NCBI GenBank assembly: GCA_017445925.1 | Contig: JAFSRW010000049.1 | Span: 6,384 to 70,383, forward strand | Direction: 5' to 3' | DNA: 64,000 nucleotides | Origin: Bacteroidaceae bacterium | Lineage (GTDB): Bacteria; Bacteroidota; Bacteroidia; Bacteroidales; Bacteroidaceae | In this document: positions 3,530-17,276 of the stretch, piece after piece | How the letters are laid out: the number at the start of each line of letters is the position of its first letter | How positions within the stretch are numbered: the first letter of the stretch is position 1 | Made by a program: the position numbers and the translations under genes | Notes under the pieces: generated by a model | The model's database searches: none | What the model was told of the DNA's origin: nothing | What the model saw: only the letters and a program-made list of their open reading frames with translations

Positions 3530-3534
3530 TTTTG

Positions 3535-3565: not shown

Positions 3566-4624
3566 ATGAAGCAAGACGTTGTTATTAGCCAAAACCTGCA
3601 GGCAGATTTGCAGCAAGCCATTAGTCGCTGTCCGCACGATAAACTTTTTGTCCTTACCGATACCACCACGCTGCGCCTCTGCTGGCCCGTGATAAAGGAT
3701 TTTCCTTATCTGAAAGAAGTGCAGATGATAACCATTGGTGCTACCGATGAGAATAAGACTCTGCAGACGCTCGCTTCCGTTTGGGAAGCCTTGCAGCAGG
3801 GAGGTGCTACGCGTCACAGCCTGCTCATCTGCTTGGGAGGCGGAATGGTAACAGACCTTGGGGGATTTGCTGCCAGCACCTTCAAGCGAGGCATTCAGTA
3901 CATCAATATTCCCACTACCTTATTAAGTATGGTAGACGCCAGCGTGGGAGGCAAGACGGGCATTAACTTTGGCGGCTTGAAGAACGAGATTGGTGTCTTC
4001 AACTGCGCCAGCACCGTTATACTCTGTGCCGAGTTCCTTCGCACCTTGGACGATTACAACATCCGTTCCGGCTATGCCGAGATGCTTAAGCACGGCATCA
4101 TCAGCAATACGGAGAATTGGGCAGAGCTTATCACCTTCGACTTGGATAACATCGACTATGCCCACCTTCAGCAGATGGTTGCCAAGAGTGTTGCCATCAA
4201 GGAACGCATTGTAGAGGAAGACCCTACGGAGAAGGGCATCCGTAAGGCCTTGAACTTAGGCCATACAGCTGGTCACGCCTTAGAGAGTTTGGCTTTAGCC
4301 GAGAACCGCACCGTTCTGCACGGATATGCGGTTGCCTGGGGCTTGGTTTGCGAGTTGTACCTGAGTGCCAAGCGTCTCAATTTCCCAAAGGACAAACTCA
4401 GCCAGACCCTTCAGTTCATAAAGGAAACTTACGGGGTGTTTACCTTCAACTGCAAGCAGTACGACCGCCTGTATCAGTTTATGCAACACGACAAGAAGAA
4501 CCAGTCGGGCGTCATCAACTTCACTCTTATGGCGGATATTGGCGACATCCGCATCAACCAAACCGCTACGCAGGAAGAAATCCAGGACATGTTGGATTTC
4601 TATCGCGAAAGTATGGGTTGTTAA
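3566..4624 (+). CDS. aroB: 3-dehydroquinate synthase
   Basis: Motifs LGGGMVTDLGGFAASTFKRGI, VGGKTGINF and LNLGHTAGHALE. The track ORF starts at 3497 inside the heptamer array. ATG at 3566 (MKQDVV..) lies downstream of the -7 box and is preferred. Confidence 0.9.
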   Translation: MKQDVVISQNLQADLQQAISRCPHDKLFVLTDTTTLRLCWPVIKDFPYLKEVQMITIGATDENKTLQTLASVWEALQQGGATRHSLLICLGGGMVTDLGGFAASTFKRGIQYINIPTTLLSMVDASVGGKTGINFGGLKNEIGVFNCASTVILCAEFLRTLDDYNIRSGYAEMLKHGIISNTENWAELITFDLDNIDYAHLQQMVAKSVAIKERIVEEDPTEKGIRKALNLGHTAGHALESLALAENRTVLHGYAVAWGLVCELYLSAKRLNFPKDKLSQTLQFIKETYGVFTFNCKQYDRLYQFMQHDKKNQSGVINFTLMADIGDIRINQTATQEEIQDMLDFYRESMGC

Positions 4625-4686
4625 CAAATCATAAAAATCCGCACCTTAAACATAACATACCATTTCTTTGTGCGTTGTAAGAGCAG

Positions 4687-5181
4687 ATGACACAGATAGA
4701 ATTTGAACATACGCTGCTTATGACTCGCACAAAGATGCTGCGTGTTGCCACAGACTTCTTCCGTAACGATGAGGATGCTGAGGATATAGTGCAGGAGGTC
4801 TACGAGCGTATGCTCCGCCGAGGATGGCAAGAGGGCGACGATCTGGAAGCCCTCCTTATCCGAGCTACCAAGAATCTGTGTGTGAGTGTGTGGCGACGCC
4901 AGAAGCTCCGAGCCACAGAACCATTGGCCTGTGTGCCTGAACCAGAAGAACGGCATTCTGCCGATGCCTCTCTCATAGAGCGTGAAACGAGCATAAAACT
5001 TGAAAGTGCTATCCGGCAATTACCTCCCTCAGAGCAAAGGCTCATCCGACTGAAAAGCGACGAACTGAGCATAGAGGAGATTTCACAGCAGACAGGCATT
5101 CCCAAACGTACCGCCAGCGCTATGCTCAGCACAGCAAAAAGGCGATTATTAAACATCTTAAAGACGAAAGCAAATGATTGA
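4687..5181 (+). CDS. ECF-type RNA polymerase sigma-70 family factor (cassette 1)
   Basis: Region 2-like DAEDIVQEVYERMLRR. Region 4 HTH LPPSEQRLIRLKSDELSIEEISQQTGIPKRTASAMLSTAKRRL. 164 aa. Confidence 0.8.
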   Translation: MTQIEFEHTLLMTRTKMLRVATDFFRNDEDAEDIVQEVYERMLRRGWQEGDDLEALLIRATKNLCVSVWRRQKLRATEPLACVPEPEERHSADASLIERETSIKLESAIRQLPPSEQRLIRLKSDELSIEEISQQTGIPKRTASAMLSTAKRRLLNILKTKAND

Positions 5182-5734
5182 CAAAGAACTGATACACCAA
5201 GCCGCAGAGGATATTGATATCTTTCAGGCCGACCTGACAGAGGAGTACGACCAGTTGATGGAAGCAAGAAAGAAGCCTCGTCGCCGCCTTCGCCTCTGGC
5301 CCCTTGCCGCAGCTGCTTGTGTGGCTGGCATCATCGCCATTTTCCTTGCTCCGCCCAGAACGTCAGAGGAACAACCGCCCCTCGCTTTGGAAGAGCCAAG
5401 AGTCGAGAGTCAAGAGCCAATAACCGAGAGTCAAGAGCCAAGGGTCGAGAGTCAAGAGCCAATAACCGAGAGTCAAGAGCCAAGAGTCGAGAGCCAAAAG
5501 ATAACTGTCACCTCTCGAAGGCCAAAAGCTAAAAGCCAACAGCCAACAGCCAACAGCCAAGAGCCGATAGAAGAGCCGATGCTGGCAGAGGCGGAGGTCG
5601 GGAGAGGGGCTCATCCTGAAATGGAGGACCCACTCCTTGCTGTGGCGGCTCAGATTCAAGACATTCGTTCGCGAGGGGAACGTTTAGGACGAGAGATAGC
5701 ACAATTAACGGATAATAAAATAAAATATCAATAA
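5174..5734 (+). CDS. single-pass membrane protein, putative anti-sigma factor (cassette 1)
   Basis: Overlaps the sigma gene by 8 nt. One TM segment LWPLAAAACVAGIIAIFLAPP. Low-complexity ESQEPRV/ESQEPIT linker. Conserved C-terminal helix MEDPLLAVAAQIQDIRSRGERL. The anti-sigma role is inferred from position only. Confidence 0.55.
   Translation: MIDKELIHQAAEDIDIFQADLTEEYDQLMEARKKPRRRLRLWPLAAAACVAGIIAIFLAPPRTSEEQPPLALEEPRVESQEPITESQEPRVESQEPITESQEPRVESQKITVTSRRPKAKSQQPTANSQEPIEEPMLAEAEVGRGAHPEMEDPLLAVAAQIQDIRSRGERLGREIAQLTDNKIKYQ
5393..5568 (+). repeat. coding period-7 DNA repeat (GAGCCAA/GAGTCGA/GAGTCAA, then AGCCAAC) encoding the ESQEPRV-type linker
   Basis: Tandem 7-nt units read directly (5393-5497 and 5534-5568). 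The 21-nt super-period gives 7-aa peptide repeats. Confidence 0.9.
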
Positions 5735-5735
5735 C

Positions 5736-6908
5736 ATGAAACGAATATTTGCAATCATTTTCTTGGCAGCATTTGCCGTTGTAGCGTTCTGCCAGGAACC
5801 CAATAAGCAACTTCGCCAATTGGAGAAATACCTGAACGAGCAGGGGTACGAGGTAAAACACAGTCAGAGTAACGCAGGAGGGAAAATCGCGCATGTTTGG
5901 ACTTCGTGGCAAAGCTTTGGCTATCTTACTCTTCCTGAGGGATGGTCAGTTGGTGAAGAAAGGTCGCGTGTCCAAAATGTTGGCGTTCATCGTGTAAAAC
6001 AGGAAAAGATGATAGAGATGCTTGATACCGCCAGACATGCTTTTTCCACATTGAGTAAGGAGGCTTCTGAGAGCTATTGCTATGAGTATCACAAGAAAGG
6101 AAAGGATACTATTAAATATGCTATGGCAACTTGTAATGATGTGGATACGCTTTCTTCTTTTTCGCACGAAGGGACAAAGTATTTCTTTAATGCACAGGAA
6201 ACGGCTAATTTTGATTACACAAGTAGGACATTTGAGAATGAAATCAAAGGCTTGGAAGACAGCGAGAACAAGAAAACCCACACACTCGATGCAAGCGGTT
6301 TCTACCAGCATTATTACTCAATACCCAGCGAGTTCGGTTGGGATGATATGCAGCCTTTTGATACCACAGCTTTTAAGGCACTTATTAAGCCTGTTCTTAA
6401 AAAAGTGTTGAAACTGAAGGGCGCAAAGTCCAGTTCCGTATATTGGCGACACGATGAGGGATGTACGGCAGATGGTCTTTGGCGTCAGTCTTTTGTAGTG
6501 CCATATGGTCTGACTACGGGTACAATGTATTATATTCCTGCGGAACATGCGGCAGAGGTCGATTTGCTATGTCGTGAGTTGGATTCGTTGGCATACCATT
6601 ATGTGAACAGTCATCCTGAGCAACCCTACGAATACACATATTACGACAGACCAATTCGTCAGCCCGAGGAAGGTAACCATGGTACGTTTTCATTTGATAT
6701 AGTTAATGGAGTTTCCTATAAAGGAGGTAACGAATACTACCTGATGTGCGGGTCTGATGCCAGTGGCTTCTACATCCTATCCCTTATAAGCAGAGGTGCG
6801 ATTTGGATTCCATACGATTGGCTAAGACTAAAGAGCTGGATCAACGGCGAAAAGGTTTACCTGAAAGGAAGGGAGCCGAAGGAAGATAAAAATGGTTTTA
6901 AAATTTAA
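5736..6908 (+). CDS. secreted protein of unknown function, cassette paralog P1
   Basis: Signal peptide MKRIFAIIFLAAFAVVAFCQ. Paralogous to 8342-9544 and 15955-17133 (shared QEPNKQLRQLEKYL, HPEQPYEY, GFYILSL..IWIP, KSWINGEKVYLKG). No family recognised. Confidence 0.75.
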   Translation: MKRIFAIIFLAAFAVVAFCQEPNKQLRQLEKYLNEQGYEVKHSQSNAGGKIAHVWTSWQSFGYLTLPEGWSVGEERSRVQNVGVHRVKQEKMIEMLDTARHAFSTLSKEASESYCYEYHKKGKDTIKYAMATCNDVDTLSSFSHEGTKYFFNAQETANFDYTSRTFENEIKGLEDSENKKTHTLDASGFYQHYYSIPSEFGWDDMQPFDTTAFKALIKPVLKKVLKLKGAKSSSVYWRHDEGCTADGLWRQSFVVPYGLTTGTMYYIPAEHAAEVDLLCRELDSLAYHYVNSHPEQPYEYTYYDRPIRQPEEGNHGTFSFDIVNGVSYKGGNEYYLMCGSDASGFYILSLISRGAIWIPYDWLRLKSWINGEKVYLKGREPKEDKNGFKI

Positions 6909-6940
6909 CAATAAAGTTAAAAATATTGGCGCCTAACAAG

Positions 6941-6970
6941 CTCCTGCGTTGCGAAACGTGGGAGTTTTTC
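6941..6970 (+). terminator. intrinsic terminator, copy 1 of a conserved element
   Basis: CTCCTGCGTT-GCGA-AACGTGGGAG forms a 10-bp stem (two G-U pairs) with a GNRA loop, followed by TTTTTC. Preceded by the conserved TGGCGCCTAA box. Confidence 0.65.
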
Positions 6971-7084
6971 TTTAGAGAAAAATCGATTTTGCGAGGGATA
7001 AAAGACGGGAAAATGAAAAAAAGTTGGGCTCCGTTGCAATAATTTTCCGTTTTCCGTGTATATATAGGTAGAGAACAGTAAAAA

Positions 7085-7624
7085 ATGGAGAAGGAAACAA
7101 ACACGTTGATTCAAGACTTGCAGCACCAGAAGCCCGCTGCCTGCCAGAAGCTACTTTCGGACTACGGTCCGGCTGTCTTCCGAATGGTGCAGCGCATCAT
7201 CACCCAGCGTGAGGATGCCGAGGAGGTTTATCAGGATGTGTTTGTTAAGGCACTACGGGGCATCCAGAACTATAACCCCAAGCAAGCGTCGCTCGGTACT
7301 TGGCTCAGCAGGATTGCTTATAACGAGTCGCTCAACTTCCTGCGCAGCCGAAAGCCTAACATTATATATATAGACGACCGCGAGCTGGGCTCCGATTCCT
7401 TTGAAGTTCCTGATGATGCACCACAAGACGAGCACACCATAGCACTTCTGGAGCAGGCCTTATCCTTACTGCCGCCTCATGAACAGGCCATTATAAGCAT
7501 GTTCTACTACGAAGAAAAGAGCCTTGCCGATATTGCCTATATCACAGGCTCCATTCCCTCTACCGTCGGCTCCCAGTTGAGTCGCATACGCAAGAAACTA
7601 TACAGAATCATTAAAACTCTCTGA
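7085..7624 (+). CDS. ECF-type RNA polymerase sigma-70 family factor (cassette 2)
   Basis: DAEEVYQDVFVKALRGIQNYNP..LGTWLSRIAYNESLNFLRSRK (regions 2.1-2.4). LPPHEQAIISMFYYEEKSLADIAYITGSIPSTVGSQLSRIRKKL (region 4). Confidence 0.85.
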   Translation: MEKETNTLIQDLQHQKPAACQKLLSDYGPAVFRMVQRIITQREDAEEVYQDVFVKALRGIQNYNPKQASLGTWLSRIAYNESLNFLRSRKPNIIYIDDRELGSDSFEVPDDAPQDEHTIALLEQALSLLPPHEQAIISMFYYEEKSLADIAYITGSIPSTVGSQLSRIRKKLYRIIKTL

Positions 7625-7627
7625 GCT

Positions 7628-8329
7628 ATGAACGATATTAAGAACGACATCAACCTTAAGGAAGCTGTCAGCAGGCGTGAGCAACAACTGCCACCCATGC
7701 CTGAAGGGTTGAATGAAAAGGTAATGGGAAGCCTCGAAGAGTACGATTGTCTTAAGAAGAAAACTCCCCTCCATAGAGGGAGGGGATGGAGGTGGGTCTT
7801 TTTAGCTGCCGCTTGTGTCGCAGGCTTCGTTGTCATCTTCTTGGCACCGCCAAAATCGGCAGAGAAGCAACCGCCCCTCGCTTTAGAAAAGCCAAGAGTT
7901 GAGAGTCAAGAGCCAATAGCAGACTCTCAATTCAGCACTCCCCTAAAGGGGCGACTGGGGTCTTTAGAGTTGCCACTGAATGTGGCTACGGCCCCACAAA
8001 GGGGAGCGAATCCCCATTCGCGACGGAGGGCAAGGATGGAGGGGGCCTCTCAACAGCCTGCTGTTGTAAAGCCTAAAAGGACTCCTAAGCGAAAGCGAGT
8101 CGTTCCCCAAGAACCTCAGGAAGAGCCTTTGCTGGCAGAAGCAGAAACCGTTGAAGAGTTTCCTACAGAAGCAGCTTATCAAGAGTTTCTTGATAAAATG
8201 AGGAAACCTTCTACTTCTTCTTATGCTACCCAAACACAGGAAATCCGTGAGCGAGGCGAGCAGGTGACACAATATGTGGCAATGCTTAATCAGCAAATTA
8301 AAACAGAACAACAATATGTAGAATACTAA
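7628..8329 (+). CDS. single-pass membrane protein, putative anti-sigma factor (cassette 2)
   Basis: Starts 3 nt after the sigma stop. TM segment WVFLAAACVAGFVVIFLAPP. EKQPPLALEKPRVESQEP is shared with cassette 1. Contains several GC-rich family B segments (PLHRGRGW, STPLKGRLG, PQRGANP). Confidence 0.55.
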   Translation: MNDIKNDINLKEAVSRREQQLPPMPEGLNEKVMGSLEEYDCLKKKTPLHRGRGWRWVFLAAACVAGFVVIFLAPPKSAEKQPPLALEKPRVESQEPIADSQFSTPLKGRLGSLELPLNVATAPQRGANPHSRRRARMEGASQQPAVVKPKRTPKRKRVVPQEPQEEPLLAEAETVEEFPTEAAYQEFLDKMRKPSTSSYATQTQEIRERGEQVTQYVAMLNQQIKTEQQYVEY

Positions 8330-8341
8330 ACAGAAGAAAAT

Positions 8342-9544
8342 ATGAAACGTTTTATCATTATATCGTTACTGACCGTCAATTTGATGAATGTGTCTGCCCA
8401 GAATGCAGGAATACTTGATGACATGTTCAGAAATCTGGAAGCCGTCATGCCTAATCAAGTCAGAAAAATTCGGGCGAATTATGGCAAGCATCAGACAGAA
8501 ACCATCGTGTACGCAAACGCGGGAACTAACGACTTTTGTTCCAAAAGAGCCTGCGGTTGGGAACATGATTACACAGATTCATTATGGAACGCTCTCTCTG
8601 CAGTTCCTGAGGTGGTGACTGGAATGTTGAATTATGAGAAAAAAGAACGTCTGCTGTATTGTGTCCATCACGCTCTCGATTCCATCTCAACCTTGCCCAG
8701 TACAGTAGAGAGTTATCATTTCGAGAAGCATCAGTTAGGCATAGATACTGTCCGCTATTCCATTTGCCTGAATCGAGGACCGGAACATCGTATAACGTAT
8801 GATAGCCTTCAGGATTGTCAGGTTTATAGCCGTGAACTCGGCCCAGAGACCATTACCTTCAATTACGAAACTCATCAAAAGTTTTGCGGCAAACATTTTG
8901 AGGGGTGGGGACATATCGAATATTCAAAGGTAGAGCCTCTGCCTGCATCCTTGGTGCCCGCAACCGCTAAGAAGTATGAACCTGTGTGCTTCGACTGGGA
9001 TCTATACCAGCAAAGCATCATGCCTATTCTTAGTCAGAAGGGAATCAGTCAGCGAAAGTTTAAATGGTCGCAAGATGAAGACTTTGCAAGGAAAGCACGA
9101 GGTTCAAATATAGATGATTATTCCATTATATACTATAATAAATTCGATGCGCTTGCAGTAGGCGAGACTAATGGCACTCTCTTCTTCATTCCTTCTGACC
9201 AAAAATCCTTTGCAGAACAGGTACTTAAGGATGTTGATGCCGCTACTCTGAAATATGTTCTCCTTCATCCCGAGCAGACGTATGAATATAAGTATAACAC
9301 TTTTTTCAACTCCCCAAACTATTGGCCTCGTTACGATCAGGAGATGATTAGGTCAACAACATTGAACAAGGATGGGATTCAGAACTTCGTTTACATTGGA
9401 GCAGATGAAAAGGGTTATTACTTCCTCCTCCTCAATACCAAAGGTAACTTGTTCTTCCCTAAGGAATTCTCTTCCCTTAAGTCTTTCGTTAACGGAGAAA
9501 AAACTTACTATAAAGGTATGGAGCCGAAGAAGGAAAAGAAATAA
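8342..9544 (+). CDS. secreted protein of unknown function, cassette paralog P2
   Basis: Signal peptide MKRFIIISLLTVNLMNVSAQ. Divergent paralog of P1/P3 (HPEQTYEYKYN, GYYFLLLNTKGNLFFP, KSFVNGEKTYYKGMEPKK). Confidence 0.75.
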   Translation: MKRFIIISLLTVNLMNVSAQNAGILDDMFRNLEAVMPNQVRKIRANYGKHQTETIVYANAGTNDFCSKRACGWEHDYTDSLWNALSAVPEVVTGMLNYEKKERLLYCVHHALDSISTLPSTVESYHFEKHQLGIDTVRYSICLNRGPEHRITYDSLQDCQVYSRELGPETITFNYETHQKFCGKHFEGWGHIEYSKVEPLPASLVPATAKKYEPVCFDWDLYQQSIMPILSQKGISQRKFKWSQDEDFARKARGSNIDDYSIIYYNKFDALAVGETNGTLFFIPSDQKSFAEQVLKDVDAATLKYVLLHPEQTYEYKYNTFFNSPNYWPRYDQEMIRSTTLNKDGIQNFVYIGADEKGYYFLLLNTKGNLFFPKEFSSLKSFVNGEKTYYKGMEPKKEKK

Positions 9545-9583
9545 AGGGTTTTAGATTCAATAATAAAGTTATTGGCGCCTATA

Positions 9584-9617
9584 AGCTCCTGCGTTGCGAA
9601 AACGTGGGAGCTTTTTT
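9584..9617 (+). terminator. intrinsic terminator, copy 2 of the conserved element
   Basis: AGCTCCTGCGTT-GCGAA-AACGTGGGAGCT followed by TTTTT. Preceded by TGGCGCCTAT. Confidence 0.65.
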
Positions 9618-9804
9618 ATGTTCGGCTTACTAAAAGGCAGGCGTTGCCGAAGGAAAAGTATTTTGTGCTCGGACAAAACTGTTTTTCTTCGGCAAAACAT
9701 TTTTTCTCACGCTGCGAGAATAAATTATCACACTGAAAGAATATATTTTCACACTGTGAGAAATTAATCTCTCAACGAGAGAAATTTATTTCCAAGGTTT
9801 TTTG

Positions 9805-9812
9805 TATCTTTG
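9805..9812 (+). promoter_or_regulatory. -7 promoter box TAtcTTTG upstream of the HU-like gene
   Basis: TAnnTTTG match, 65 nt upstream of the ATG at 9877. Confidence 0.4.
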
Positions 9813-9876
9813 CACCATCGAGAAAAGAATTTATCATCAAGGCAAAGCAATTATGTTGTCTAAATAAAGTAATTAT

Positions 9877-10509
9877 ATGGCACGTTATATTAAAAAGGAG
9901 ATTGTAGACCTGAAGGGATCGGGCTCTACAAAGGCTTATTACAAGTTGAAGGCCTGGCGCAGAATGGACTTCGACGATTTTGTGGAATGCTGTCATGCGC
10001 ACAACGGGGCATTCAGCAAGGCGCTATTAAAGGGTGTGATGACGGCTGTCTGCGAGGAACTGGCCTATCAGATTTCGAACGGATACAGCGTGAAGATCGA
10101 TGGGATGGGAACGTTCTCTGCCAAACTGGGCGTTCGCAAGGACAAGGAGATGGACAATTTCCAGGAAGGTGAAGCCAAGCGAAATGCGCAAAGCATCGAG
10201 GTGACGGGCGTTTCGTTCAAGGTGGAAAAGGAGCTGGTAAGCGTAATAAACCGTGAGTGCGACCTGGAACGAGGTGGCGAGGAGCGACTAAAACGCTCGA
10301 AATACTCGAAGGAGGAGCGCATAGAGCGTGCCCGTCAGTTCATCAGAAAGAACTCTTATATGCGTGTTCAGGAATATGCCTCGCTTACGGGGATGGCTTA
10401 CTCTACCGCTGCCCGCGAACTGTGCAGTATTGCCTCGGATCCCACATCGGGTATCAGAAGCGAGGGGGCAAAGAGCGGCAAACTCTACTTGCTGGCAAAG
10501 GAAGAATAA
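9877..10509 (+). CDS. HU-family-like DNA-binding protein with C-terminal winged-helix-like extension
   Basis: N-terminus resembles Bacteroidota HU-like proteins (AYYKLKAWRRMDFDDF..LLKGVMTAVCEELAYQISNGYSVKIDGMGTFSAKLG). C-terminal segment YMRVQEYASLTGMAYSTAARELCSI is HTH-like. Confidence 0.55.
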   Translation: MARYIKKEIVDLKGSGSTKAYYKLKAWRRMDFDDFVECCHAHNGAFSKALLKGVMTAVCEELAYQISNGYSVKIDGMGTFSAKLGVRKDKEMDNFQEGEAKRNAQSIEVTGVSFKVEKELVSVINRECDLERGGEERLKRSKYSKEERIERARQFIRKNSYMRVQEYASLTGMAYSTAARELCSIASDPTSGIRSEGAKSGKLYLLAKEE

Positions 10510-10584
10510 AAACTGATGTCTTGTCTAAAGTATCCATCTTATTCAATATTATTCGTCCCTGCAATAGTGTGTTCTCGTTGCCTC

Positions 10585-10761
10585 TTACTTCTCAAGGAAA
10601 TGGAATTCTTTGTCAAGCTCGCTAAATAACTCCTCGCTGGTGATATAGTTTCCTTTGGCAAACTGCTCTTCACTCTCAGCGACGCGGGCGTAGAGCTCTT
10701 CTATCGTGTCGAAGTTGTTAAGCTGTGAGTCCATTTTCATAGTCATTGGTACTTGCTCCAT
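10585..10761 (-). CDS. small hypothetical protein (58 aa)
   Basis: Internal ATG (MEQVPMTMKMD..) chosen because the longer track ORF overlaps the upstream XRE gene by 83 nt. Acidic helical sequence, no family recognised. Confidence 0.35.
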   Translation of the reverse strand: MEQVPMTMKMDSQLNNFDTIEELYARVAESEEQFAKGNYITSEELFSELDKEFHFLEK

Positions 10762-10831
10762 AGATAAAACACTGAAAAGTTCGTTTTTGTGTATATTTTC
10801 TACACTTTTTCTAACTTTCTGATGTATATCA

Positions 10832-11161
10832 TCACAGTACCGTAAGCGAAATACGCTTTCCAAGTCCTGAGAATATGCGGAAGAGCGTAGAGAGTTGCAC
10901 ATCAGCATGACCATTCTCTATCTTTGAGATATAGCTCTTCTTGGTACCAATCTTGGCAGCCAGCTGTTCCTGGGTTAAGCCTGCCAGACGACGCTGTTCC
11001 TTTAAGCATTCTGCCAAACAGAACGCCTCAGCTTCTGTCTCAAAATTCTCACGAGCCTCTGTTCCGCGCTTGCCATACTCTGCATCAAGCAGCTCATCGA
11101 AACTCGTACACTCCATAATTGCTTCTTTCTTCTTTGCGTCCATTGTGCGAATTTTATTCAT
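10832..11161 (-). CDS. XRE-family helix-turn-helix transcriptional regulator (HigA-like antitoxin architecture)
   Basis: LKEQRRLAGLTQEQLAAKIGTKKSYISKIENGHADVQLSTLFRIFSGLG is a classic Cro/C1 HTH. Confidence 0.75.
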   Translation of the reverse strand: MNKIRTMDAKKKEAIMECTSFDELLDAEYGKRGTEARENFETEAEAFCLAECLKEQRRLAGLTQEQLAAKIGTKKSYISKIENGHADVQLSTLFRIFSGLGKRISLTVL

Positions 11162-11181
11162 CTCTCATTACTTTGATGCGA

Positions 11182-11189
11182 CAAAGTTA
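11182..11189 (-). promoter_or_regulatory. -7 promoter box (TAACTTTG on minus strand) for the XRE gene
   Basis: Plus strand reads CAAAGTTA, 21 nt upstream of the ATG at 11161. Confidence 0.4.
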
Positions 11190-11278
11190 ACCAATTAATG
11201 AACATTCGCCAAATTTCTATTGTGTTTTTATGTACATTTATATCAAAGCTGTTACTTTTGTTGTAAAAAGAGGAAAAA

Positions 11279-11325
11279 TGGCGCCTAATAAGCTCCTGGG
11301 TTGCAAAAACGTGGGAGCTTTAAGA
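11279..11325 (+). repeat. orphan third copy of the TGGCGCCTAA..AGCTCC..GGGAGCT terminator-like element
   Basis: TGGCGCCTAATAAGCTCCTGGGTTGCAAAAACGTGGGAGCTTT aligns with 6929-6970 and 9573-9617. It does not follow any cassette gene. Confidence 0.7.
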
Positions 11326-11402
11326 AGATTTAACGTCTCAGCACTTATTTTTTTCCTACCTCAAACGTTATAAATAAAAATAAGTTAATACAAAAACAGA
11401 AT

Positions 11403-13193
11403 ATGAAGAGAACAATCATCGCCATCCTGCTCTCCCTCATCGCTGTGGCTGGGAATGCAAAGAACAAAGCCATCGTTTGGGAAGAGACGTCAATGGTTTT
11501 CACATCTAATCGCTACTTTCAGATAAAGAAGGTAGAACTGACGAAACAAGAGACGAAGCTCTATGCACGCTACTATTACATGCCCAGCTATTGGTTCAGC
11601 ATCGCTAAGGGAAGCTACTTGCAGTCGGGCGGAAAGACTTATCCCATCGTCAGCGCTGATAGCATAACGCTTGGCGAAAGGTTTACCTTAGGCGACAAAG
11701 GAGAACAAGAGTTCGTGCTCCACTTCGAACCTCTGCCCATGAAGACGAAAGAGTTTGACTTCATTGAAGGCTTGAAAGACAACAACTTCAAGGTCTTTGG
11801 CGTTCACGACAAGAACGTTCCCTTGCCTGCAACTCCAGTGCCTGCCGAGTATCGTGCCGACTATACAGAAGAAGACCTGCTACCTGAACTTCAATACGGA
11901 AGTGAGCCTGCCACGATTCGCTTCAAGACGATAAACCTCCGTAAAGGTATGAAGCAAGAGATAAAGATGCGGTATATTGACCTGAAGAACCTCAACCTGA
12001 ATACCCCGACAAGAGAGACGACTAAAGTCCTTCATTTGGATGAGGCAGGCGAAGCAGAGATAAGTCTGCCTTTAGGCTTCCCGCAGGATGTGAATATCGA
12101 ACTTTCCAGCGGCTATTGGTTTTCTACAGGTCATCTGTTCCTTGCTCCAGGCAAAGAAGTTACGGTACTCATCGACATGATGCGCGACGACACGGAGCGT
12201 AGGGACAGTAAGTTCGTGGGCTTCAAAGGTTACATGGCAAGGCTCGACAAGGAATACACCAAGGCATATCAGGACTCGCAAAAGGAGACACCATACACCT
12301 TCCGGAAGCAAACCGACATCAAGGACATGCCTTCGCTCGTGAACTATCTTGAAGGACGGAAAGCCCACATGGAAGGATGGAAGAAGAGCGCTCCTTTCAT
12401 GGAGATAACCAAGGAAGTGCTTCAGCAGAAAGTTAATATGCCCATATTCATGTCAACCCCCGAATTGGATTCGCTGACGAAGACAGAAACATTTCGCGAT
12501 TACCTGCTTCGTCAGCACAGAGAGCCTTTGCAAAACTCCAAGAGGTTCCTCGATGATTACTTTGTCTATGCCAGCCGTTATTATGCAATGGACAAGGAAG
12601 CTCGTGGCATCAATGCCGACCTTGCACGCTATTGCTATTATCTGCCCAAGGTGCTTGATGGGCAGAAAGTGGAAAAGCCTCTGATAGAAGACAAGTCGCT
12701 CTCTGCCCTTTACGACCAAGCTGTTGAGGAATACCGTAAGACCATTGCCGCCAATCAAAAAGAGTTGGCAGACAATGTGCATTATCTTGATATGACAGAC
12801 GTTGCTCCAGAAAACATCTTGCAGACCATTCTTGATGAATATAAGGGCAAAGCAGTCCTGATAGATCTTTGGGCAACGTGGTGCGGTCCATGCCGGAAGG
12901 GACATAAGGATATGGCTCCGCTAAAGGAACAACTGAAAGGCAAGAACATCCAGTTTGTCTATATCACCTCAACCTCATCGCCATACGAGGACTGGAAGCC
13001 GATGCTTGGCGATATCTCTGGCAACCACTATTACCTGACGAAAGGGCAATGGGATCACCTTCTTGAGTTATACCAATCCAACGGCATCCCAACCTATGCC
13101 ATCTACGATGCTGACGGCAATCTGACATATTCCACCATCGGCTTCCCAGGTTTAGACAAAATCAAAGAGGAAATAGAAAAGGTATTGAAATGA
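11403..13193 (+). CDS. TlpA-like thioredoxin-fold protein (thiol-disulfide oxidoreductase) with large N-terminal domain
   Basis: Signal peptide MKRTIIAILLSLIAVAGNA. C-terminal LIDLWATWCGPCRKGHKDMAPL carries a WCGPC active site. Confidence 0.75.
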   Translation: MKRTIIAILLSLIAVAGNAKNKAIVWEETSMVFTSNRYFQIKKVELTKQETKLYARYYYMPSYWFSIAKGSYLQSGGKTYPIVSADSITLGERFTLGDKGEQEFVLHFEPLPMKTKEFDFIEGLKDNNFKVFGVHDKNVPLPATPVPAEYRADYTEEDLLPELQYGSEPATIRFKTINLRKGMKQEIKMRYIDLKNLNLNTPTRETTKVLHLDEAGEAEISLPLGFPQDVNIELSSGYWFSTGHLFLAPGKEVTVLIDMMRDDTERRDSKFVGFKGYMARLDKEYTKAYQDSQKETPYTFRKQTDIKDMPSLVNYLEGRKAHMEGWKKSAPFMEITKEVLQQKVNMPIFMSTPELDSLTKTETFRDYLLRQHREPLQNSKRFLDDYFVYASRYYAMDKEARGINADLARYCYYLPKVLDGQKVEKPLIEDKSLSALYDQAVEEYRKTIAANQKELADNVHYLDMTDVAPENILQTILDEYKGKAVLIDLWATWCGPCRKGHKDMAPLKEQLKGKNIQFVYITSTSSPYEDWKPMLGDISGNHYYLTKGQWDHLLELYQSNGIPTYAIYDADGNLTYSTIGFPGLDKIKEEIEKVLK

Positions 13194-13272
13194 AAAAGCT
13201 GCTTTTTCCGTAAAACTTATAAGATTTTGCACAGAAAACAAGGAAAAACTTGGATTACTGTGCAAGAATTTA

Positions 13273-13280
13273 TAACTTTG
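13273..13280 (+). promoter_or_regulatory. -7 promoter box TAacTTTG upstream of the abiEi-like gene
   Basis: TAnnTTTG match, 21 nt upstream of the ATG at 13301. Confidence 0.4.
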
Positions 13281-13300
13281 CCCCCAGAAAATAAGATTTC

Positions 13301-13933
13301 ATGAGGGGAAATCCATTAATACAATTGGGTAATGTTCCTGTAAATGCAGGAACTATTGCTGCATGCTTCGAACACCTTTCTTCGCCCAGTGAAAAGATAC
13401 GAGCCTTGGAGAAGGATGGGCAGTTGATTCGCCTAAAGCGTGGTTTGTATGTGGTAGATGATAGGGTGAGTGGTAAGCCTATTAATGTCCGACTATGTGC
13501 CAACCATATTTATGGCCCGTCATACGTGTCGTTACAATGGGCTTTAAGGTGGTATGGGCTCATTCCTGAACGCGTGTTTACGATGACTTCCATCACCACC
13601 AAGCGAACTCGAATGTTTGAAAACTCCTTCGGACGTTTTACCTATTATCAGGTTAAACCAGACTATTTTCACATTGGAATCAGGAGCGTAGAAGAAAATG
13701 GATTAAATTGTCTTATGGCCAGTCCCGAAAAGGCTCTTTGTGACATGATTCTTTACGATTCCTATTTGCCTCCGCAATCTATAAAAGGTTTGGAACAATA
13801 CTTAGAAGAAGATATTCGCTTTGATACTGATGCCTTGAATGATTTTGATGTCGGTATCATAGAAGCATGTGCCCAAACGGGCAGAAAGGAACAGATATTG
13901 AATAACCTGATTAAAATTATCAAGAAAAGATGA
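13301..13933 (+). CDS. type IV toxin-antitoxin system AbiEi-family antitoxin-like protein
   Basis: GQLIRLKRGLYVV...LCANHIYGPSYVSLQWALRWYGLIPERVF resembles the AbiEi_4 domain. 4-nt ATGA overlap with the downstream nucleotidyltransferase gene. Confidence 0.65.
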   Translation: MRGNPLIQLGNVPVNAGTIAACFEHLSSPSEKIRALEKDGQLIRLKRGLYVVDDRVSGKPINVRLCANHIYGPSYVSLQWALRWYGLIPERVFTMTSITTKRTRMFENSFGRFTYYQVKPDYFHIGIRSVEENGLNCLMASPEKALCDMILYDSYLPPQSIKGLEQYLEEDIRFDTDALNDFDVGIIEACAQTGRKEQILNNLIKIIKKR

Positions 13934-14751
13934 GCATATATGATGATATGGTGACGGAATACGCCCAGAAGTTAGGCACATCTACGTCAAACGTTGAGCA
14001 AGAGGTAATGCAGCGTATAGCTCTTGCAGGATTACAGCGTGGGGGATTCTTTGATCACGCCGCCTTCTATGGCGGCACTTGTCTGCGAATCTTTCACGGA
14101 CTTCCTCGTTTTTCTGAGGATATGGATTTTTCCCTGATTGAGAAACGTGATGATATCCATTTGGAAAACTATTTCCCCGCTATCGTTGAAGAATTTAAGT
14201 TGGCAGGCCACGAAGTCAATATCGTAAAGAAGGATAAGAAGATATTTGGACGAGTAGAGTCGGCATTCCTCAAGGAAAATACCGAGGCATTCGATATCAA
14301 GTTCCAAACCAAGAAGACCGTTAAGGTAAAGATAGAACTCGACACCGACCCTCCCTTGGCCTTCGAGACGGAGCAGAAGCTTCTCATCCAACCCTATTCC
14401 TTTATGACTCGTTGCTTTACCTTACCATATTTATATGCTGGAAAGATGCACGCATTGGTCTATCGTGCTTGGCAACGAAGGGTCAAGGGGCGTGACTGGT
14501 ACGATTTCGAATGGTATGTTCGCCATCAGATTCCTTTAGATTACCAACATCTGAAGGAGAGAATCCGTGAGTTTAGTGGCGAAGTGGTGGAAAAGGAAAC
14601 ATTTATGCAGCTTCTCCGTAAAAAGCTTTCGTCAACGGACATAGAACTGGTTAAGCAGGATGTAATGGGGTTTGTCGACAACCCTCACGAACTTGATATT
14701 TGGTCTAACGACTACTTCTTGCAGTTGGCAGACATGATTGTGTTTAAGTGA
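13930..14751 (+). CDS. nucleotidyltransferase AbiEii/AbiGii-family toxin
   Basis: FYGGTCLRIFHGLPRFSEDMDFSL matches the GGTxLxxxxxxxRxSxDxDF signature of DUF1814/AbiEii. 273 aa. Confidence 0.75.
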   Translation: MSIYDDMVTEYAQKLGTSTSNVEQEVMQRIALAGLQRGGFFDHAAFYGGTCLRIFHGLPRFSEDMDFSLIEKRDDIHLENYFPAIVEEFKLAGHEVNIVKKDKKIFGRVESAFLKENTEAFDIKFQTKKTVKVKIELDTDPPLAFETEQKLLIQPYSFMTRCFTLPYLYAGKMHALVYRAWQRRVKGRDWYDFEWYVRHQIPLDYQHLKERIREFSGEVVEKETFMQLLRKKLSSTDIELVKQDVMGFVDNPHELDIWSNDYFLQLADMIVFK

Positions 14752-14809
14752 ATGTTAAAAACCTTTAATTTTACTTGACATTGTCCTTTCCGCTACGTTA
14801 TTAAAGTGT

Positions 14810-15322
14810 ATGGAACAGATAGAGTTCATAAGATTAGCACCCCAATTGCGAGGAAAGGCAATGGCCATAGGCCAGTCGTTCTTTGCCTCCGAGGAAGAGG
14901 CCGAGGATGTGGCGCAGGAGACGCTCATCCGACTGTGGAAAGCATGGGAAGGATTAACTTCGGCAGAAGAAGCCGAAAGACTGACCGTAAGGGTTGCTAA
15001 GTATGAGTGTATAAATGCTTGGCGCAGAGAGCAGAGCAGACCGCACACATCACTCAGTTCGGCACAGGAGGTAACGCATCCGATGACGCAGAACGGGCAA
15101 CCGATGGAAGGCGATGAACTCTCGGAAGCTATACGCAGGGCAGCCGGTACACTAACCAAGTCCGAAGCCCGTCTGTGGCGCCTGTTTGCCGAGGCAGGAA
15201 TGACGGCAGCAGAGATTTCTGCCATTACAGAGATAAATGTGCGGTCGGTCAGCACAATGCTCAGCCATGCCAGAAGCCATATTTACAAATTGTTGAAAGA
15301 AGGAGGATACATAGATGGATAA
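14810..15322 (+). CDS. ECF-type RNA polymerase sigma-70 family factor (cassette 3)
   Basis: EAEDVAQETLIRLWKAW (region 2). LTKSEARLWRLFAEAGMTAAEISAITEINVRSVSTMLSHARSHIYKLL (region 4). Closest to the cassette 1 sigma (shared MxQIEF start). Confidence 0.8.
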   Translation: MEQIEFIRLAPQLRGKAMAIGQSFFASEEEAEDVAQETLIRLWKAWEGLTSAEEAERLTVRVAKYECINAWRREQSRPHTSLSSAQEVTHPMTQNGQPMEGDELSEAIRRAAGTLTKSEARLWRLFAEAGMTAAEISAITEINVRSVSTMLSHARSHIYKLLKEGGYIDG

Positions 15323-15953
15323 GAAACAAATCATAGAGGATTACCTGCAAGGTCGTCACCCCATGGAGCAACAATCGTGGGAAATGCCCTCAGCCCAGGA
15401 ACTGGATAATGCCGAAGTAGAGTTCGACCGAATCAAAAAAAGCCTCACCCCCCGTCCTCTCCGAAAGGAGAGGGGGCTAAAGTTCTGGCCTTTAGCGATT
15501 GCTGCTTGTTTGGCAGGCTTCGTTGTCATATTCTTGGCACCGCCCAGAACGGCAGATGAACCGATAGCCAGCAGTCAAGAGCCAAGAGTCGAGAGTCAAG
15601 AGCCAATAGCCAGCAGCCAACTGTCAACTGTCAACTGTCAACTTTCAACTCACGAAGGCCCAGAGCCAAGGGTCGAGAGTCAAGAGCCAACAGCTAGCAG
15701 CCAAGAGCCAAGGGTCGAGAGCCCAGAGCCAAAAGCCAAGAGCCAACAGCCAACGGCCAAAAGCCAAGAGCCAATAGCGGAGCCTATGCAGGCAGAGGCG
15801 GAAGCTCCTGCAGAAGAAGTACGACCCATTCTTCCCGAAATGGAGGACCCGTTCCTTGCCATAGCAGAACAGATGCAGGACATCCGTTCGCGAGGCGAAC
15901 AGGTACGTCAGGAAGTAGCACAATTAATAGAAAATAAAGATAATCTTCAATAA
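15315..15953 (+). CDS. single-pass membrane protein, putative anti-sigma factor (cassette 3)
   Basis: 8-nt overlap with the sigma gene. TM segment FWPLAIAACLAGFVVIFLAPP. Long SQEPRVE/QLSTVNC heptad linker. Conserved C-terminus MEDPFLAIAEQMQDIRSRGEQV. Confidence 0.55.
   Translation: MDKKQIIEDYLQGRHPMEQQSWEMPSAQELDNAEVEFDRIKKSLTPRPLRKERGLKFWPLAIAACLAGFVVIFLAPPRTADEPIASSQEPRVESQEPIASSQLSTVNCQLSTHEGPEPRVESQEPTASSQEPRVESPEPKAKSQQPTAKSQEPIAEPMQAEAEAPAEEVRPILPEMEDPFLAIAEQMQDIRSRGEQVRQEVAQLIENKDNLQ
15565..15775 (+). repeat. coding period-7 repeat tract mixing GAGCCAA/GAGTCAA and CAACTGT/CAACTTT units
   Basis: Read directly. Contains CAACTGTCAACTGTCAACTGTCAACTTTCAACT, the complement of family A TTGA units, flanked by GAGCCAA-type units. 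Confidence 0.9.
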
Positions 15954-15954
15954 A

Positions 15955-17133
15955 ATGAAAAAAATATTCACAATCATCCTGCTGGCAGTCGTTTCTGCCG
16001 CAGCATTTAGCCAGGAACCCAACAAGCAGCTTCAGCAGTTGGAGAAATATCTGCAAGAACTGGACTTAGGTGTTTCCCACGAACAATCCAACTGTGGTGG
16101 CACTACTAATATTCGACATACATGGCGGAGCATGTTCTATGAATCCACACAAAAAATACTCGCTGATGAAAGCCTAAGCGAGGAAAAAAGAAAACAGTAT
16201 CAAGCCTATCATGACGAATTTATCGCCAAGAGATGGAAGAATCTTGAGCACGCAGTAGACTCTGTTCGGCTTGCTTTTGCACGTCTGAGTAAGGAAACTT
16301 CTAAAAGTTATCTCTTTGAAGATCACATGGATGGTACCGACACCATAAAATACGCACTGGCTTTTGCCCGTCCCGATGGTATGGCTCCTTTCCTTTATGA
16401 ACAAAAAAAATCTAATAGAGCGGAATTTTTTGGCGCCCGCGAGGCGGCAAGTTTTAATTTCGACAAGAACTTCGACAGCCAAGGCCAGTATTTCGTTGGG
16501 AAGGGCAGTTATGAACACGTCTATGAGATAGAAACAGGCCTAACGTGGGAAAATGATATGAAAAACTTTGACATTGAGGCTTTTCAGGCGCTTATCCAGC
16601 CCGTAATAAAGCCCCTTCTGTCCCTGAAAGGAGCAAAATCATATCCTGTATATTGGCGACATGACGTTGGCTATGAAGATGAAGTGGGGAAAAACGGCGG
16701 ACTAACTCACAAGACTACTTCTTATGGGAGCGATGCGTCAGGCCAAGGGCTTACTACGGGATCTTTCTGCTTTATTCCTGCCCAGTACGAGGCAGAAGCG
16801 AAGGCGCTTCACAAGCAGCTCGACTCGCTCTCTCTGGCCTATGTCAACCAGCATCCAGAGCAGCCATACATTTACAAGTATTCCAAGGACTATTCGTTCT
16901 TCAATATCGTGGAGATATTAAATGGGCACCGGCATCACGGTAGCGATGATTATAGCCTCAGGAGCTATTCTGACCCCGACGGCTTTTATATTCTTTCCCT
17001 TACCACAAAGGGCGATATCTGGATTCCCCGCGAATGGCCAAAGCTGAAAAGCTGGATCAATGGCGAAAAAGTCTATCTGAAAGGAAAAGCACCAAAAAGG
17101 ACCCCTAACCCCCTTAATGGGGGAATGAAATAG
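15955..17133 (+). CDS. secreted protein of unknown function, cassette paralog P3
   Basis: Signal peptide MKKIFTIILLAVVSAAAFSQ. Strongly similar to P1 at both ends (QEPNKQLQQLEKYL; GFYILSLTTKGDIWIP..KSWINGEKVYLKGK). Confidence 0.75.
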   Translation: MKKIFTIILLAVVSAAAFSQEPNKQLQQLEKYLQELDLGVSHEQSNCGGTTNIRHTWRSMFYESTQKILADESLSEEKRKQYQAYHDEFIAKRWKNLEHAVDSVRLAFARLSKETSKSYLFEDHMDGTDTIKYALAFARPDGMAPFLYEQKKSNRAEFFGAREAASFNFDKNFDSQGQYFVGKGSYEHVYEIETGLTWENDMKNFDIEAFQALIQPVIKPLLSLKGAKSYPVYWRHDVGYEDEVGKNGGLTHKTTSYGSDASGQGLTTGSFCFIPAQYEAEAKALHKQLDSLSLAYVNQHPEQPYIYKYSKDYSFFNIVEILNGHRHHGSDDYSLRSYSDPDGFYILSLTTKGDIWIPREWPKLKSWINGEKVYLKGKAPKRTPNPLNGGMK

Positions 17134-17276
17134 AGGGAGAAAGCGCAGACGCCCTCTATTTCGCGTTTTAAGGCCCCTCTACGCTCTTTTTAGTATTCTG
17201 GTGGTAGTCAGTCCACCTGATGGGGTTAGAGGGGCTTAGACGAAGTTTTTAGCAAGGGGCAGTCGTGAGTTGGCGC

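Follow-up and report, generated by a model that had tools for sequence, protein, structure and literature searches.

How does a bacterium of the Bacteroidota convey an envelope signal to an extracytoplasmic function (ECF) sigma factor when no SusC-like transducer stands beside the sigma gene? The question is raised by a stretch of 64,000 nucleotides (hereafter the window; contig JAFSRW010000049.1 of assembly GCA_017445925.1, positions 6,384 to 70,383), whose host is a rumen Prevotella-like bacterium and which holds three paralogous cassettes of the same three genes: S, an ECF sigma factor; M, a single-pass membrane protein; and P, an exported protein of about 390 residues. The answer that we modestly favour is an autoregulated module in which M would act as the anti-sigma factor of S and P as a periplasmic sensor and partner of M. 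An observation in its favour is that the two ends of M diverge with different partners, the N-terminus with S and the C-terminus with P.

Three paralogous cassettes

All nine genes lie on the forward strand. Cassette 1 comprises S1 (4687..5181, 164 residues), M1 (5174..5734, 186 residues) and P1 (5736..6908); cassette 2 comprises S2 (7085..7624, 179 residues), M2 (7628..8329, 233 residues) and P2 (8342..9544, 400 residues); and cassette 3 comprises S3 (14810..15322, 170 residues), M3 (15315..15953, 212 residues) and P3 (15955..17133, 392 residues). An earlier note, made from the sequence of the window, had placed the cassettes in this common order at 4687-6908, 7085-9544 and 14810-17133, and the list of open reading frames gives the nine genes at exactly these coordinates. 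The tight coupling it described is there as well: the S and M genes share 8 nt in cassettes 1 and 3, a 3-nt gap separating them in cassette 2, and the distance from M to the start of P is 1, 12 and 1 nt in cassettes 1, 2 and 3, respectively.

Pairwise BLASTP comparison relates all three proteins across the cassettes, with identities of 22-32% for S (S1/S3 E=5e-20, 32%; S1/S2 4e-9; S2/S3 7e-5), 39-58% for M (M1/M3 E=9e-53, 58%; M1/M2 9e-31; M2/M3 3e-26) and 27-43% for P (P1/P3 E=1e-93, 43%; P1/P2 7e-27; P2/P3 1e-29). The paralogy indicated by these comparisons is far above chance and marks old paralogues rather than recent copies. P2, assigned by BLASTP, family alignment and hidden Markov model (HMM), is the most divergent P paralogue, and its N-terminus is unlike its counterpart in P1 and P3. 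The motifs quoted in the earlier note are only in part common to the three cassettes. In M, the transmembrane core is found in all three, but the C-terminal motif MEDP[LF]LA[VI]A.Q[IM]QDIRSRGE is confined to cassettes 1 and 3 and is degenerate in M2 (QEIRERGEQ); in P, the motifs HPEQ[PT]Y.Y.Y, G[FY]Y[IF]L[SL]L and KS[WF][IV]NGEK.Y.KG occur in all three, but QEPNKQL.QLEKYL only in 1 and 3. Searches with HMMs of the three copies revealed no additional S, M or P gene in the remaining 47 kb of the window.

The closest metagenome-assembled genomes (MAGs) carry the same genes in another arrangement. P1 is 98% identical to its orthologue in a sheep-rumen MAG (locus L001) and 88% identical to that of locus L003; in both, about 1.7 kb separates cassettes 1 and 2, as against only 176 nt in the window, and the cassette-3 orthologue of the L001 MAG is on a separate contig (L059). 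The cassette array has thus been rearranged between close strains. The gap of L001 (5355-6677) contains a minus-strand open reading frame of 440 codons beginning MRIERDIINQFKAWKE.

Conservation of the triad in other genomes

A survey of one genome per species, covering 185,579 species, returned 69 loci. Of these, 68 bear the title of a Bacteroidales, Bacteroidaceae or Prevotellaceae assembly, mostly with mention of ruminant gut samples; the remaining locus is on a 2-kb contig assigned to a Selenomonas bin. For 65 P genes, the available sequence extends 1.5 kb or more upstream; 62 of them are preceded within 1.3 kb and on the same strand by an ECF sigma gene, and 57 by an M gene detected by HMM. 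The three loci devoid of a sigma gene correspond to an insertion (L018) and to truncated P fragments (L055 and L064). In the 55 triads that could be strictly parsed, the S-to-M distance ranges from -14 to +4 nt (mostly -8, -4 or +3) and the M-to-P distance is mostly 1-30 nt. Several genomes hold two or three loci, often in tandem, and distant P relatives keep the sigma context in the orders S-M-P-P (L071) and P-P-S-M-P (L074 and L069).

The earlier note had proposed that its view would fall if the P family occurred mostly away from sigma genes; the survey gives the opposite picture, and the three-gene triad is, on this comparison of genomes, a conserved unit and not a local accident. When 1.84 billion cluster representatives were searched exhaustively with a profile, the P family amounted to 261 clusters. 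In a word-indexed search of 5.8 billion proteins, the relatives of M and P are all unnamed or 'hypothetical', and the few named ones belong to Prevotella or Bacteroidaceae assemblies. The P-family loci and the named matches recovered come from rumen or gut Prevotellaceae/Bacteroidaceae assemblies, and the P family appears to be small and confined to ruminant gut lineages.

Two putative modules within the cassette

The 55 complete triads allow the divergence of each protein, and of each part of M, to be compared. The median identity is higher for P (42%) than for S (25%), and the pairwise distances of the two are poorly correlated (r=0.26). The N-terminus of M, whose median identity is 22%, co-diverges with S (r=0.92); the last 42 residues of M, with a median identity of 41%, co-diverge with P (r=0.64); and the cross-correlations of the two halves of M are 0.25-0.33. 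The window echoes the pattern, since M1/M3 and P1/P3 are the similar pairs and the degenerate helix of M2 accompanies the divergent P2. Furthermore, hybrid M proteins exist: in locus L021, the crossover is inside the transmembrane segment, the N-terminus being of the L046/L039 type and the second half of the segment of the window type (GFVVIFLAPP). Because of this split co-divergence and of the hybrid proteins, we read the cassette as two modules that have been shuffled, an output module predicted to consist of S and the N-terminus of M, and an input module predicted to consist of the C-terminus of M and P.

A contact between P and the C-terminus of M was modelled by folding, as a single chain, the mature P3 followed by residues 77-212 of M3, which provide the natural linker and the helix, with an alignment made of P homologues only. 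The predicted local distance difference test (pLDDT) is about 90 for the P part and below 50 for the linker, and returns to 87-92 for the M helix (chain residues 476-508), over which the alignment has no rows. The model is suggestive in that it is compatible with the docking of P on M. An alignment including unpaired M homologues was discarded, MAFFT having spread these homologues over the P region.

The membrane protein

The 55 M proteins share one anatomy: a single hydrophobic segment, with 4-7 Lys/Arg in the 15 preceding residues and 1-2 after it. This positive-inside distribution indicates a topology with the N-terminus in the cytoplasm and the C-terminus outside. The cytoplasmic N-terminus has a median length of 53 residues (40-55 in the window, where it is 40 in M1), and the transmembrane segment spans residues 41-59 of M1, 56-74 of M2 and 52-70 of M3. 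The periplasmic part, of 114-167 residues, is conserved only in its last 30 or so residues, the linker being unconserved. The consensus of this terminal helix is DPyLlaAAQaQDIRSRGERLhQEVAqLM, in which IRxRGE is 96-100% conserved in 54 of the 55 proteins; it reads DPLLAVAAQIQDIRSRGERL in M1 and DPFLAIAEQMQDIRSRGEQV in M3. M2 is recognised by its transmembrane segment and its N-terminal motif LKEAVSRREQQLPPMPEGLNEKVM, and its C-terminal motif is the degenerate QEIRERGEQV. A cassette-2 orthologue (L002, 3360-5150) encodes a short intact M of 140 residues, with FNFQLSTFNFQL repeats in the linker and QEIKKKGERL as a degenerate form of the C-terminal motif.

The absence of FecR or zf-HC2 features, pointed out in the earlier note, is confirmed: M1-M3 match no Pfam or NCBIfam family, with no FecR, DUF4974 or zf-HC2 at E<=1 in Pfam, and the class I anti-sigma domain (ASD) with its H-x3-C-x2-C zinc motif has no match in them. 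Nine M relatives gave nothing significant either; their sub-threshold Pfam matches are NrsF (0.018), zf-HC2 (E=0.025 and 0.26) and DUF3379 (0.028-0.11), several of the best being anti-sigma families, and the protein of L071 has a faint precomputed DUF3379 match. The N-termini of the M proteins are of several unrelated types. That of M2 follows the pattern L(R/K)EA..RREQ.LPPMP..LN.R(V/L)M; another, L..KFMAGETSL.EE..L, is similar to the initial helices of class I anti-sigma domains deprived of the zinc ligands.

The anti-sigma-like character that the earlier note had attributed to M is thus borne out by its anatomy, namely the single N-in transmembrane segment, the short cytoplasmic part and the coupling of its gene to S. 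Given the translational coupling of S and M, this topology and the co-divergence of the M N-terminus with S, M is most likely the anti-sigma factor that holds S inactive.

The sigma factors and their transcription signals

S1, S2 and S3 all contain the Pfam domains Sigma70_r2 and Sigma70_r4_2 (3e-16 and 6e-11, respectively, in S2) and exceed the cut-off of the NCBIfam model TIGR02937 (69, 100.3 and 60.7 bits for S1, S2 and S3; cut-off 42.9), which classes them as ECF (group IV) sigma-70 factors. The nearest NCBIfam family of S1 and S3 is NF058625, sigma_PG0214 (95.7 and 93.4 bits); its cut-off of 130 bits is reached by none of the three, S2 scoring 66.4 bits and being, by these scores, a more generic RpoE-like ECF factor.

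A candidate ECF-type promoter precedes each sigma gene on the forward strand. That of cassette 1 (4653..4677; ATAACAT..GCGTTG, with the spacing AAC-N16-CGT) is identical in the L003 orthologue. That of cassette 3 (14776..14800; TTGACAT..ACGTTATTA, GAC-N16-CGT) is conserved in L024, L046 and L059, three loci that diverge from the window further upstream. The AAC/GAC-N16-CGT arrangement is the classical geometry of ECF promoters, and the Bacteroides housekeeping element TAnnTTTG is unlike these motifs. The promoter of cassette 2 (7036..7060; TTGCAAT-N15-CGTGTATATA) corresponds to a motif of the S2 clade found de novo: a search for gapped pairs of tetramers in 100 nt of upstream sequence gave TGCAAT-N15-GTGTATA in 19 of 56 sigma upstream regions, as against at most 6 in shuffled sequences, and a looser form of the pattern was found in 21 regions, all but one at an equal distance and in the S2 clade. 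Indeed, the aligned upstream regions give each sigma clade its own bipartite motif, with the -35 element about 48 nt and the -10 element less than 25 nt before the sigma ATG; the motifs of other clades are CTTAAC-N16-CGTAAT, TTGTTTAA..TCGTTATA and GTGACAT..GTGTCTATA. Because the type of motif tracks the sigma clade, the cassette promoters can be read as putatively autoregulatory. No other specific match to the three promoters was found within the window.

The 3' end of each cassette carries a candidate terminator on the forward strand. A hairpin with a 13-bp stem and a T run follows P1 (6928..6967, terminator at 6938-6967), and a homologous hairpin, likewise with a 13-bp stem, follows P2 (9574..9613, terminator at 9583-9613); the possible terminator behind P3 (17130..17169), an 8-bp stem ATAGAGGG/CCCTCTAT then TTCGCGTTTT, is weaker than the other two. 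The first two hairpins belong to a repeated element of about 40 nt, GGCGCCTA(A)nAAGCTCCTG.GTTGC.AAACGTGGGAGC, present in three copies at 6928-6967, 9574-9613 and 11280-11318. A scan of 3000-18000 with Rfam gave no RNA family.

The exported partner

Every member of the P family starts with a signal peptide, and cleavage is predicted just before a Gln that is invariant (Q20 in P1). The Cys that precedes it in P1 is replaced by Ser in P3 and by Ala in P2. A Gln at the cleavage site fits the Q-rule of Bacteroidetes (PMC5837995). As this Gln is invariant and the preceding Cys is not conserved, P is better called a periplasmic protein exported via signal peptidase I than a lipoprotein, a status rejected for want of a conserved lipobox Cys. 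The idea of a cargo of the type IX secretion system was likewise rejected, since NCBIfam gave no TIGR04183-type match. The earlier description of P as 'secreted' consequently holds for its export with a signal peptide, but a periplasmic location fits better than release. A lipoprotein-type signal (SIASC) is present in the P-like protein of L002, which the P HMM built from three sequences did not detect; a lipid anchor may exist in some members of the family.

P belongs to no recognised family, as had been suspected: P1-P3 match nothing in Pfam or NCBIfam, none of 37 aligned members matches Pfam, and a sequence-profile search of the PDB gave only one spurious match (E=0.17). An AlphaFold2 model of P1 made from the 37-sequence alignment (pLDDT 83.9; predicted template-modelling score, pTM, 0.80) is alpha+beta and consists of two similar halves, each with a short helix, a hairpin, a long helix (76-107; 269-292) and an antiparallel sheet of 5-7 strands. 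The secondary-structure pattern thus repeats; the comparison of the N and C halves by hhalign (E=0.37) gives no proof of an internal duplication. Foldseek found nothing with a template-modelling (TM) score above 0.2 in the PDB or BFVD for the P1 model. For the P3 model, whose confidence is higher, recurring weak matches with TM scores of at most 0.25 are double-hotdog dehydratases/hydratases, YwmB, START, Bet v 1 and Ups1, the best being 3kg9_A (E=2.6e-4, probability 0.44, TM score 0.11-0.16) and 2fpn (probability 0.54, TM score 0.21). The assignment of P to a double-hotdog or START/Bet v 1 fold was rejected, no superposition approaching a TM score of about 0.5 with high probability, and our description of the modelled fold goes no further than a long helix with a sheet wrapped around it, twice over. 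The invariant polar residues of the family (H53, E117, H119, D124, D209, H239/D240, H293, Q296, K366, S367 and N370) point to a defined binding or catalytic site.

Linker repeats and recombination

The linkers of M1 and M3 are encoded by imperfect tandem repeats of the heptanucleotides CAAGAGT, CAAGAGC and CGAGAGT (5391-5567 and 15566-15778), read as 7-residue repeats of the ESQEPRV type. Their length differs among close strains through in-frame insertions and deletions, such as the additional 63 nt of the M1 orthologue of L001. Phase variation by 7-nt slippage was considered and rejected: the differences between strains are in frame, the short M of L002 is intact, and M of L037 has one in-frame stop and no frameshift.

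The DNA encoding the transmembrane segment and the early linker is about 80% identical between the cassettes (5309-5422 vs 7805-7918 vs 15491-15610), whereas elsewhere the proteins are 22-58% identical. This indicates gene conversion or recombination among the paralogues within the genome. The shared transmembrane core, presented in the earlier note as a common feature of the membrane proteins, would therefore largely reflect such exchange; the transmembrane sequences of M differ in other genomes, so that the core does not define the family.

Heptamer repeats with a core (A/C)(A/G)TTGA(A/G/C), or its complement, occur throughout the window: a stringent period-7 scan found 16 arrays, as against none in shuffled sequences, and Tandem Repeats Finder (TRF) lists more than 25. 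Besides those of the M linkers, examples are 3493-3531, 20571-20600, 21272-21374, 22976-23011, 28437-28504, 33358-33422, 38822-38936, 40654-40689, 41092-41126 and 60450-60538. The arrays are both intergenic and in-frame coding, as in the M1 and M3 linkers and in the 'SQLSTD' repeats of a glycoside hydrolase family 95 (GH95) gene. They resemble the heptamer repeats (STRR) of cyanobacteria; a literature search found no paper pairing 'heptanucleotide repeat' with 'Prevotella'.

Proposed mechanism and its rivals

In the mechanism we propose, the cytoplasmic N-terminus of M, of 40-55 residues, would hold S inactive at the membrane. Beyond the membrane, M would continue as a disordered, repeat-encoded linker of about 90 residues and end in the conserved helix DPyL..AAQ.QDIRSRGERL..EVA.L. 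P, exported by Sec and signal peptidase I, would stay in the periplasm and bind this helix. The signal perceived by P, possibly a hydrophobic or lipid-like molecule or a product of envelope damage, given the hotdog- or helix-grip-like halves of the P model, would alter the contact between P and M. The altered contact would either expose M to regulated proteolysis, as in the case of RseB and RseA, or shift its conformation, as in the case of CnrX and CnrY. The freed S would transcribe its own operon from the ECF-type promoter just upstream and, in some lineages, probably also the gene of a neighbouring TlpA-like periplasmic thiol-disulfide oxidoreductase. The differing promoter specificities of the cassettes would make them insulated channels, and new cassettes would arise by recombination of the conserved input half (M C-terminus and P) with different output halves (S and M N-terminus), with the junction in the transmembrane segment or the linker. 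What we infer from these comparisons is that M binds S and that P binds the M helix, as well as what the signal is and how S is released. Our confidence is high for the part that concerns an ECF sigma factor and its anti-sigma factor and moderate for P as a sensor that binds the M helix; the mechanism taken as a whole we hold to be probable by a small measure.

The earlier note had left open whether P is a sensor or a regulated effector. The co-divergence data lead us to favour the role of sensor and partner. As a regulated output, P would be a periplasmic stress-protection or repair protein, merely co-transcribed, and M alone would sense the signal or be degraded. P does lie downstream in the S-M operon, where autoregulation would induce it; its many invariant polar residues would suit a catalytic or ligand-binding effector, and the PG0214-0218 cluster of Porphyromonas gingivalis likewise associates an ECF sigma factor with co-regulated hypothetical proteins. 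This account is nevertheless unlikely in our opinion, though it keeps some weight. In the periplasm, M has no conserved part but one short helix; such a helix would hardly suffice alone as a sensor, and its divergence follows that of P, not that of S; each cassette retains its own P while S swaps among very different sigma clades, and a generic effector need not travel with the C-terminus of M. P could also have an enzymatic role in the periplasm. As a hydrolase or protease, for example, it would process the C-terminal part of M in a site-1-like manner; alternatively, it would modify an envelope component that in its turn acts back on M. The invariant His53, Glu117, His119, Asp124, Asp209, His239/Asp240, His293, Lys366 and Ser367 would be in keeping with such an activity, many hotdog-type folds are enzymes, and the invariant IRxRGE of the M helix could be a recognition or cleavage site. 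An enzymatic P is all the same improbable: no peptidase or hydrolase family gave even a weak match across 37 members, and no structural match to an enzyme is significant, the best being that of 3kg9_A cited above. Finally, M could be a membrane tether or chaperone for P and no anti-sigma factor, with S controlled otherwise, for instance only transcriptionally; the very short cytoplasmic part of M would suit this account. This we consider very improbable in view of the nearly perfect co-divergence of the M N-terminus with S, of the translational coupling of S and M in all triads, of the ASD-like N-terminus (L..KF.AGETS..EE..L) and weak zf-HC2, NrsF and DUF3379 matches of some M relatives, and of the 45-residue cytoplasmic domain that is sufficient in CnrY (PMC6851896).

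Several points weigh against the sensor mechanism itself. M1-M3 have no significant match to any anti-sigma model of Pfam or NCBIfam, which also speaks for a tether. Co-divergence can result from linkage and from recombination inside M, in the absence of any contact between the proteins, and a long charged helix alone can reach a high pLDDT. The idea of a hydrophobic ligand is weak, as the structural matches of P have TM scores of at most 0.25 and low probabilities, and the invariant His, Asp, Glu and Ser of P would equally suit an enzyme. The TlpA-like link is found in only about a fifth of the loci and, in the window, at 1.9 kb from P2; TlpA-like proteins are, besides, abundant in Bacteroidota.

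Comparison with known systems

The earlier note saw in the association of an ECF/anti-sigma pair with a soluble exported protein a different signalling logic. This view is overstated: a sigma factor, a single-pass anti-sigma factor and an exported partner form an established design, exemplified by RpoE-RseA-RseB (PMC4336711) and CnrH-CnrY-CnrX (PMC6851896). The best reading of the sequence comparisons is a module that would be functionally like both systems and homologous to neither.

In CnrH-CnrY-CnrX of Cupriavidus metallidurans, as in the cassettes, an ECF sigma factor is associated with an anti-sigma factor and a periplasmic partner, in an operon that is autoregulated there and predicted to be so here. 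The cytoplasmic anti-sigma domain of CnrY has 45 residues, compared with 40-55 for the cytoplasmic parts of M1-M3, and the sensor CnrX receives its C-terminal tail in the periplasm (PMC6851896), as P would receive the M helix in our model. The two also differ: no sequence similarity to the cassettes was detected, the gene order is cnrYXH instead of S-M-P, CnrX is a membrane-anchored four-helix-bundle metal sensor whereas P is a soluble alpha+beta protein of about 370 residues exported via signal peptidase I, and M possesses the repeat-encoded periplasmic linker of about 90 residues, in contrast to CnrY.

The rpoE-rseA-rseB operon of E. coli encodes a sigma factor, a single-pass N-in anti-sigma factor and a periplasmic protein that binds the periplasmic part of the latter (PMC4336711, PMC8545111). 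With this system and AlgU-MucA-MucB of Pseudomonas, the cassettes share the gene order (sigma, N-in anti-sigma, exported partner) and the autoregulation, here putative; proteolytic release is assumed for the cassettes by analogy with RseA/RseB. A partner with a fold of the lipid-binding type may be a further common trait, the P3 model having given weak matches to lipid-binding folds, with MucB itself (6in9_A) matching P in Foldseek with E=0.023, a probability of 0.09 and a TM score of 0.10. In Pfam, M has no RseA_N or RseA_C match and P no MucB_RseB match, and there is no equivalent of rseC.

The FecI/FecR/SusC-like systems (ECF240, former ECF10) are closer in their phylum: they too occur in Bacteroidota, with an ECF sigma gene followed by that of a single-pass anti-sigma factor, and in multiple paralogues per genome (PMC7826278). 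The cassettes differ in that M has neither FecR (PF04773) nor DUF4974 and in that their third component is periplasmic. Neither within nor next to the cassettes was a SusC-like or TonB-dependent transducer found, and none is recurrent in the related loci. The earlier note was accordingly right that the cassettes lack such a transducer, but its premise that Bacteroidota ECF pairs are usually tied to one is overstated, since many are untied, for example ECF03 (PMC7826278) and PG0214-0218 (PMC11018363). The last of these, from Porphyromonas gingivalis (NF058625, GFO_1088 family), provides the best-scoring named sigma family for S1 and S3, below the cut-off; PG0214 is part of a co-regulated cluster of hypothetical proteins that features in studies of oxidative and nitric oxide stress (PMC11018363).

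The cassettes are of interest in a wider frame. To our knowledge, almost all mechanistic knowledge of Bacteroidota ECF sigma factors concerns the SusC/FecR-linked type. Of the phyla examined, Bacteroidota has the highest number of ECF sigma factors per genome, 22.5 on average (PMC7826278). The cassette would offer a compact and delimited alternative of three genes with its own promoter and terminator, whose input half (P and the M helix of about 30 residues) is devoid of described relatives and appears separable from the output half. If P does bind the M helix, the pair would represent a new family of periplasmic sensors with a short transferable docking peptide, and the cassettes would provide naturally orthogonal sigma/promoter pairs for the engineering of rumen and gut Prevotella. 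The design principle is already known; the C-terminal motif of M, the P family and their apparent exchangeability are new. The impact is moderate, the family being small and apparently confined to the ruminant gut and the general design being known. A bolder hypothesis, which we judge doubtful yet worth stating, is that P and the M helix are a portable periplasmic input module of unseen fold, repeatedly recombined in rumen Prevotellaceae onto unrelated ECF outputs by crossovers in the transmembrane segment or heptamer linker, the linker serving not just as a spacer but as a recombination substrate that renders the module exchangeable; insulated sensors would thereby have diversified into families that respond to hydrophobic or envelope-redox signals specific to the rumen.

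Neighbouring genes and other observations

The genes that surround the cassettes in the window are those of AroB, an HU-HIG protein, the TlpA-like protein, AbiEii, GH78 and GH95. In the search for a universal fourth gene of the cassette, which was not found, only the TlpA-like protein recurred, BlaR1/BlaI-like neighbours being present in a minority of loci. The TlpA-like protein of the window (11403..13193, forward strand; Redoxin and Thioredoxin_8) is an exported thioredoxin-fold protein of 596 residues with the motif WCGPC. The gene that immediately follows P, in the same orientation, encodes such a protein in 12 of 66 loci according to phmmer and in 18 according to BLAST clustering. The start of this gene is 20-35 nt behind P in L009, L014 and L023, where it forms a fourth gene of the operon, and 100 nt behind P in L022, L031, L035 and L066, where a conserved ECF-like ATAACAT-N15-GCGTTATATA precedes it. 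In the window it lies 1.9 kb after P2, with the third copy of the P-terminator element (11280-11318) just upstream. This copy suggests that the segment 9614-11279, with the HU-HIG gene and minus-strand open reading frames, was inserted between P2 and the TlpA-like gene, whose product is possibly a regulon member or the former fourth gene of cassette 2. The recurring neighbour hints at a function in envelope thiol-redox homeostasis in strict anaerobes.

The sole outer-membrane barrel near the cassettes (134-3346, minus strand) is divergent, separated from them by aroB, and not recurrent; it is a beta-barrel protein of 1070 residues with CarboxypepD_reg and OMP_b-brl_3 domains and an unusual glycine-rich tail, GGGGWGGGRGGFGGGGGRVVVVGGGGGGRF. 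The longest open reading frame of the 3-dehydroquinate synthase gene starts (3497-3565) within a CAATGTT x5 repeat read as MFNVQCSMFNV..., and the true start is probably the Met of MKQDVV, 23 codons downstream. Tandem repeats of 19 and 21 nt (TCACACTGAGAGAATAAATTA x2.7) occupy 9669-9762, upstream of the gene of the HU-HIG DNA-binding protein (9877-10509). Between cassettes 2 and 3, the region 13301-14751 encodes a type IV toxin-antitoxin pair of the AbiEii type, made up of an AbiEii nucleotidyltransferase of 273 residues (E=5e-32) and, upstream, a partner of 210 residues with no Pfam match. Finally, the stretch between P3 and the GH78 gene contains an inverted array: (T)ATCACAG is repeated directly three times at 17277-17300, and its complement CTGTGAT(A) three times at 17359-17384, some 60 nt away. 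The array may serve to bind a regulator or may mark one end of a mobile element.

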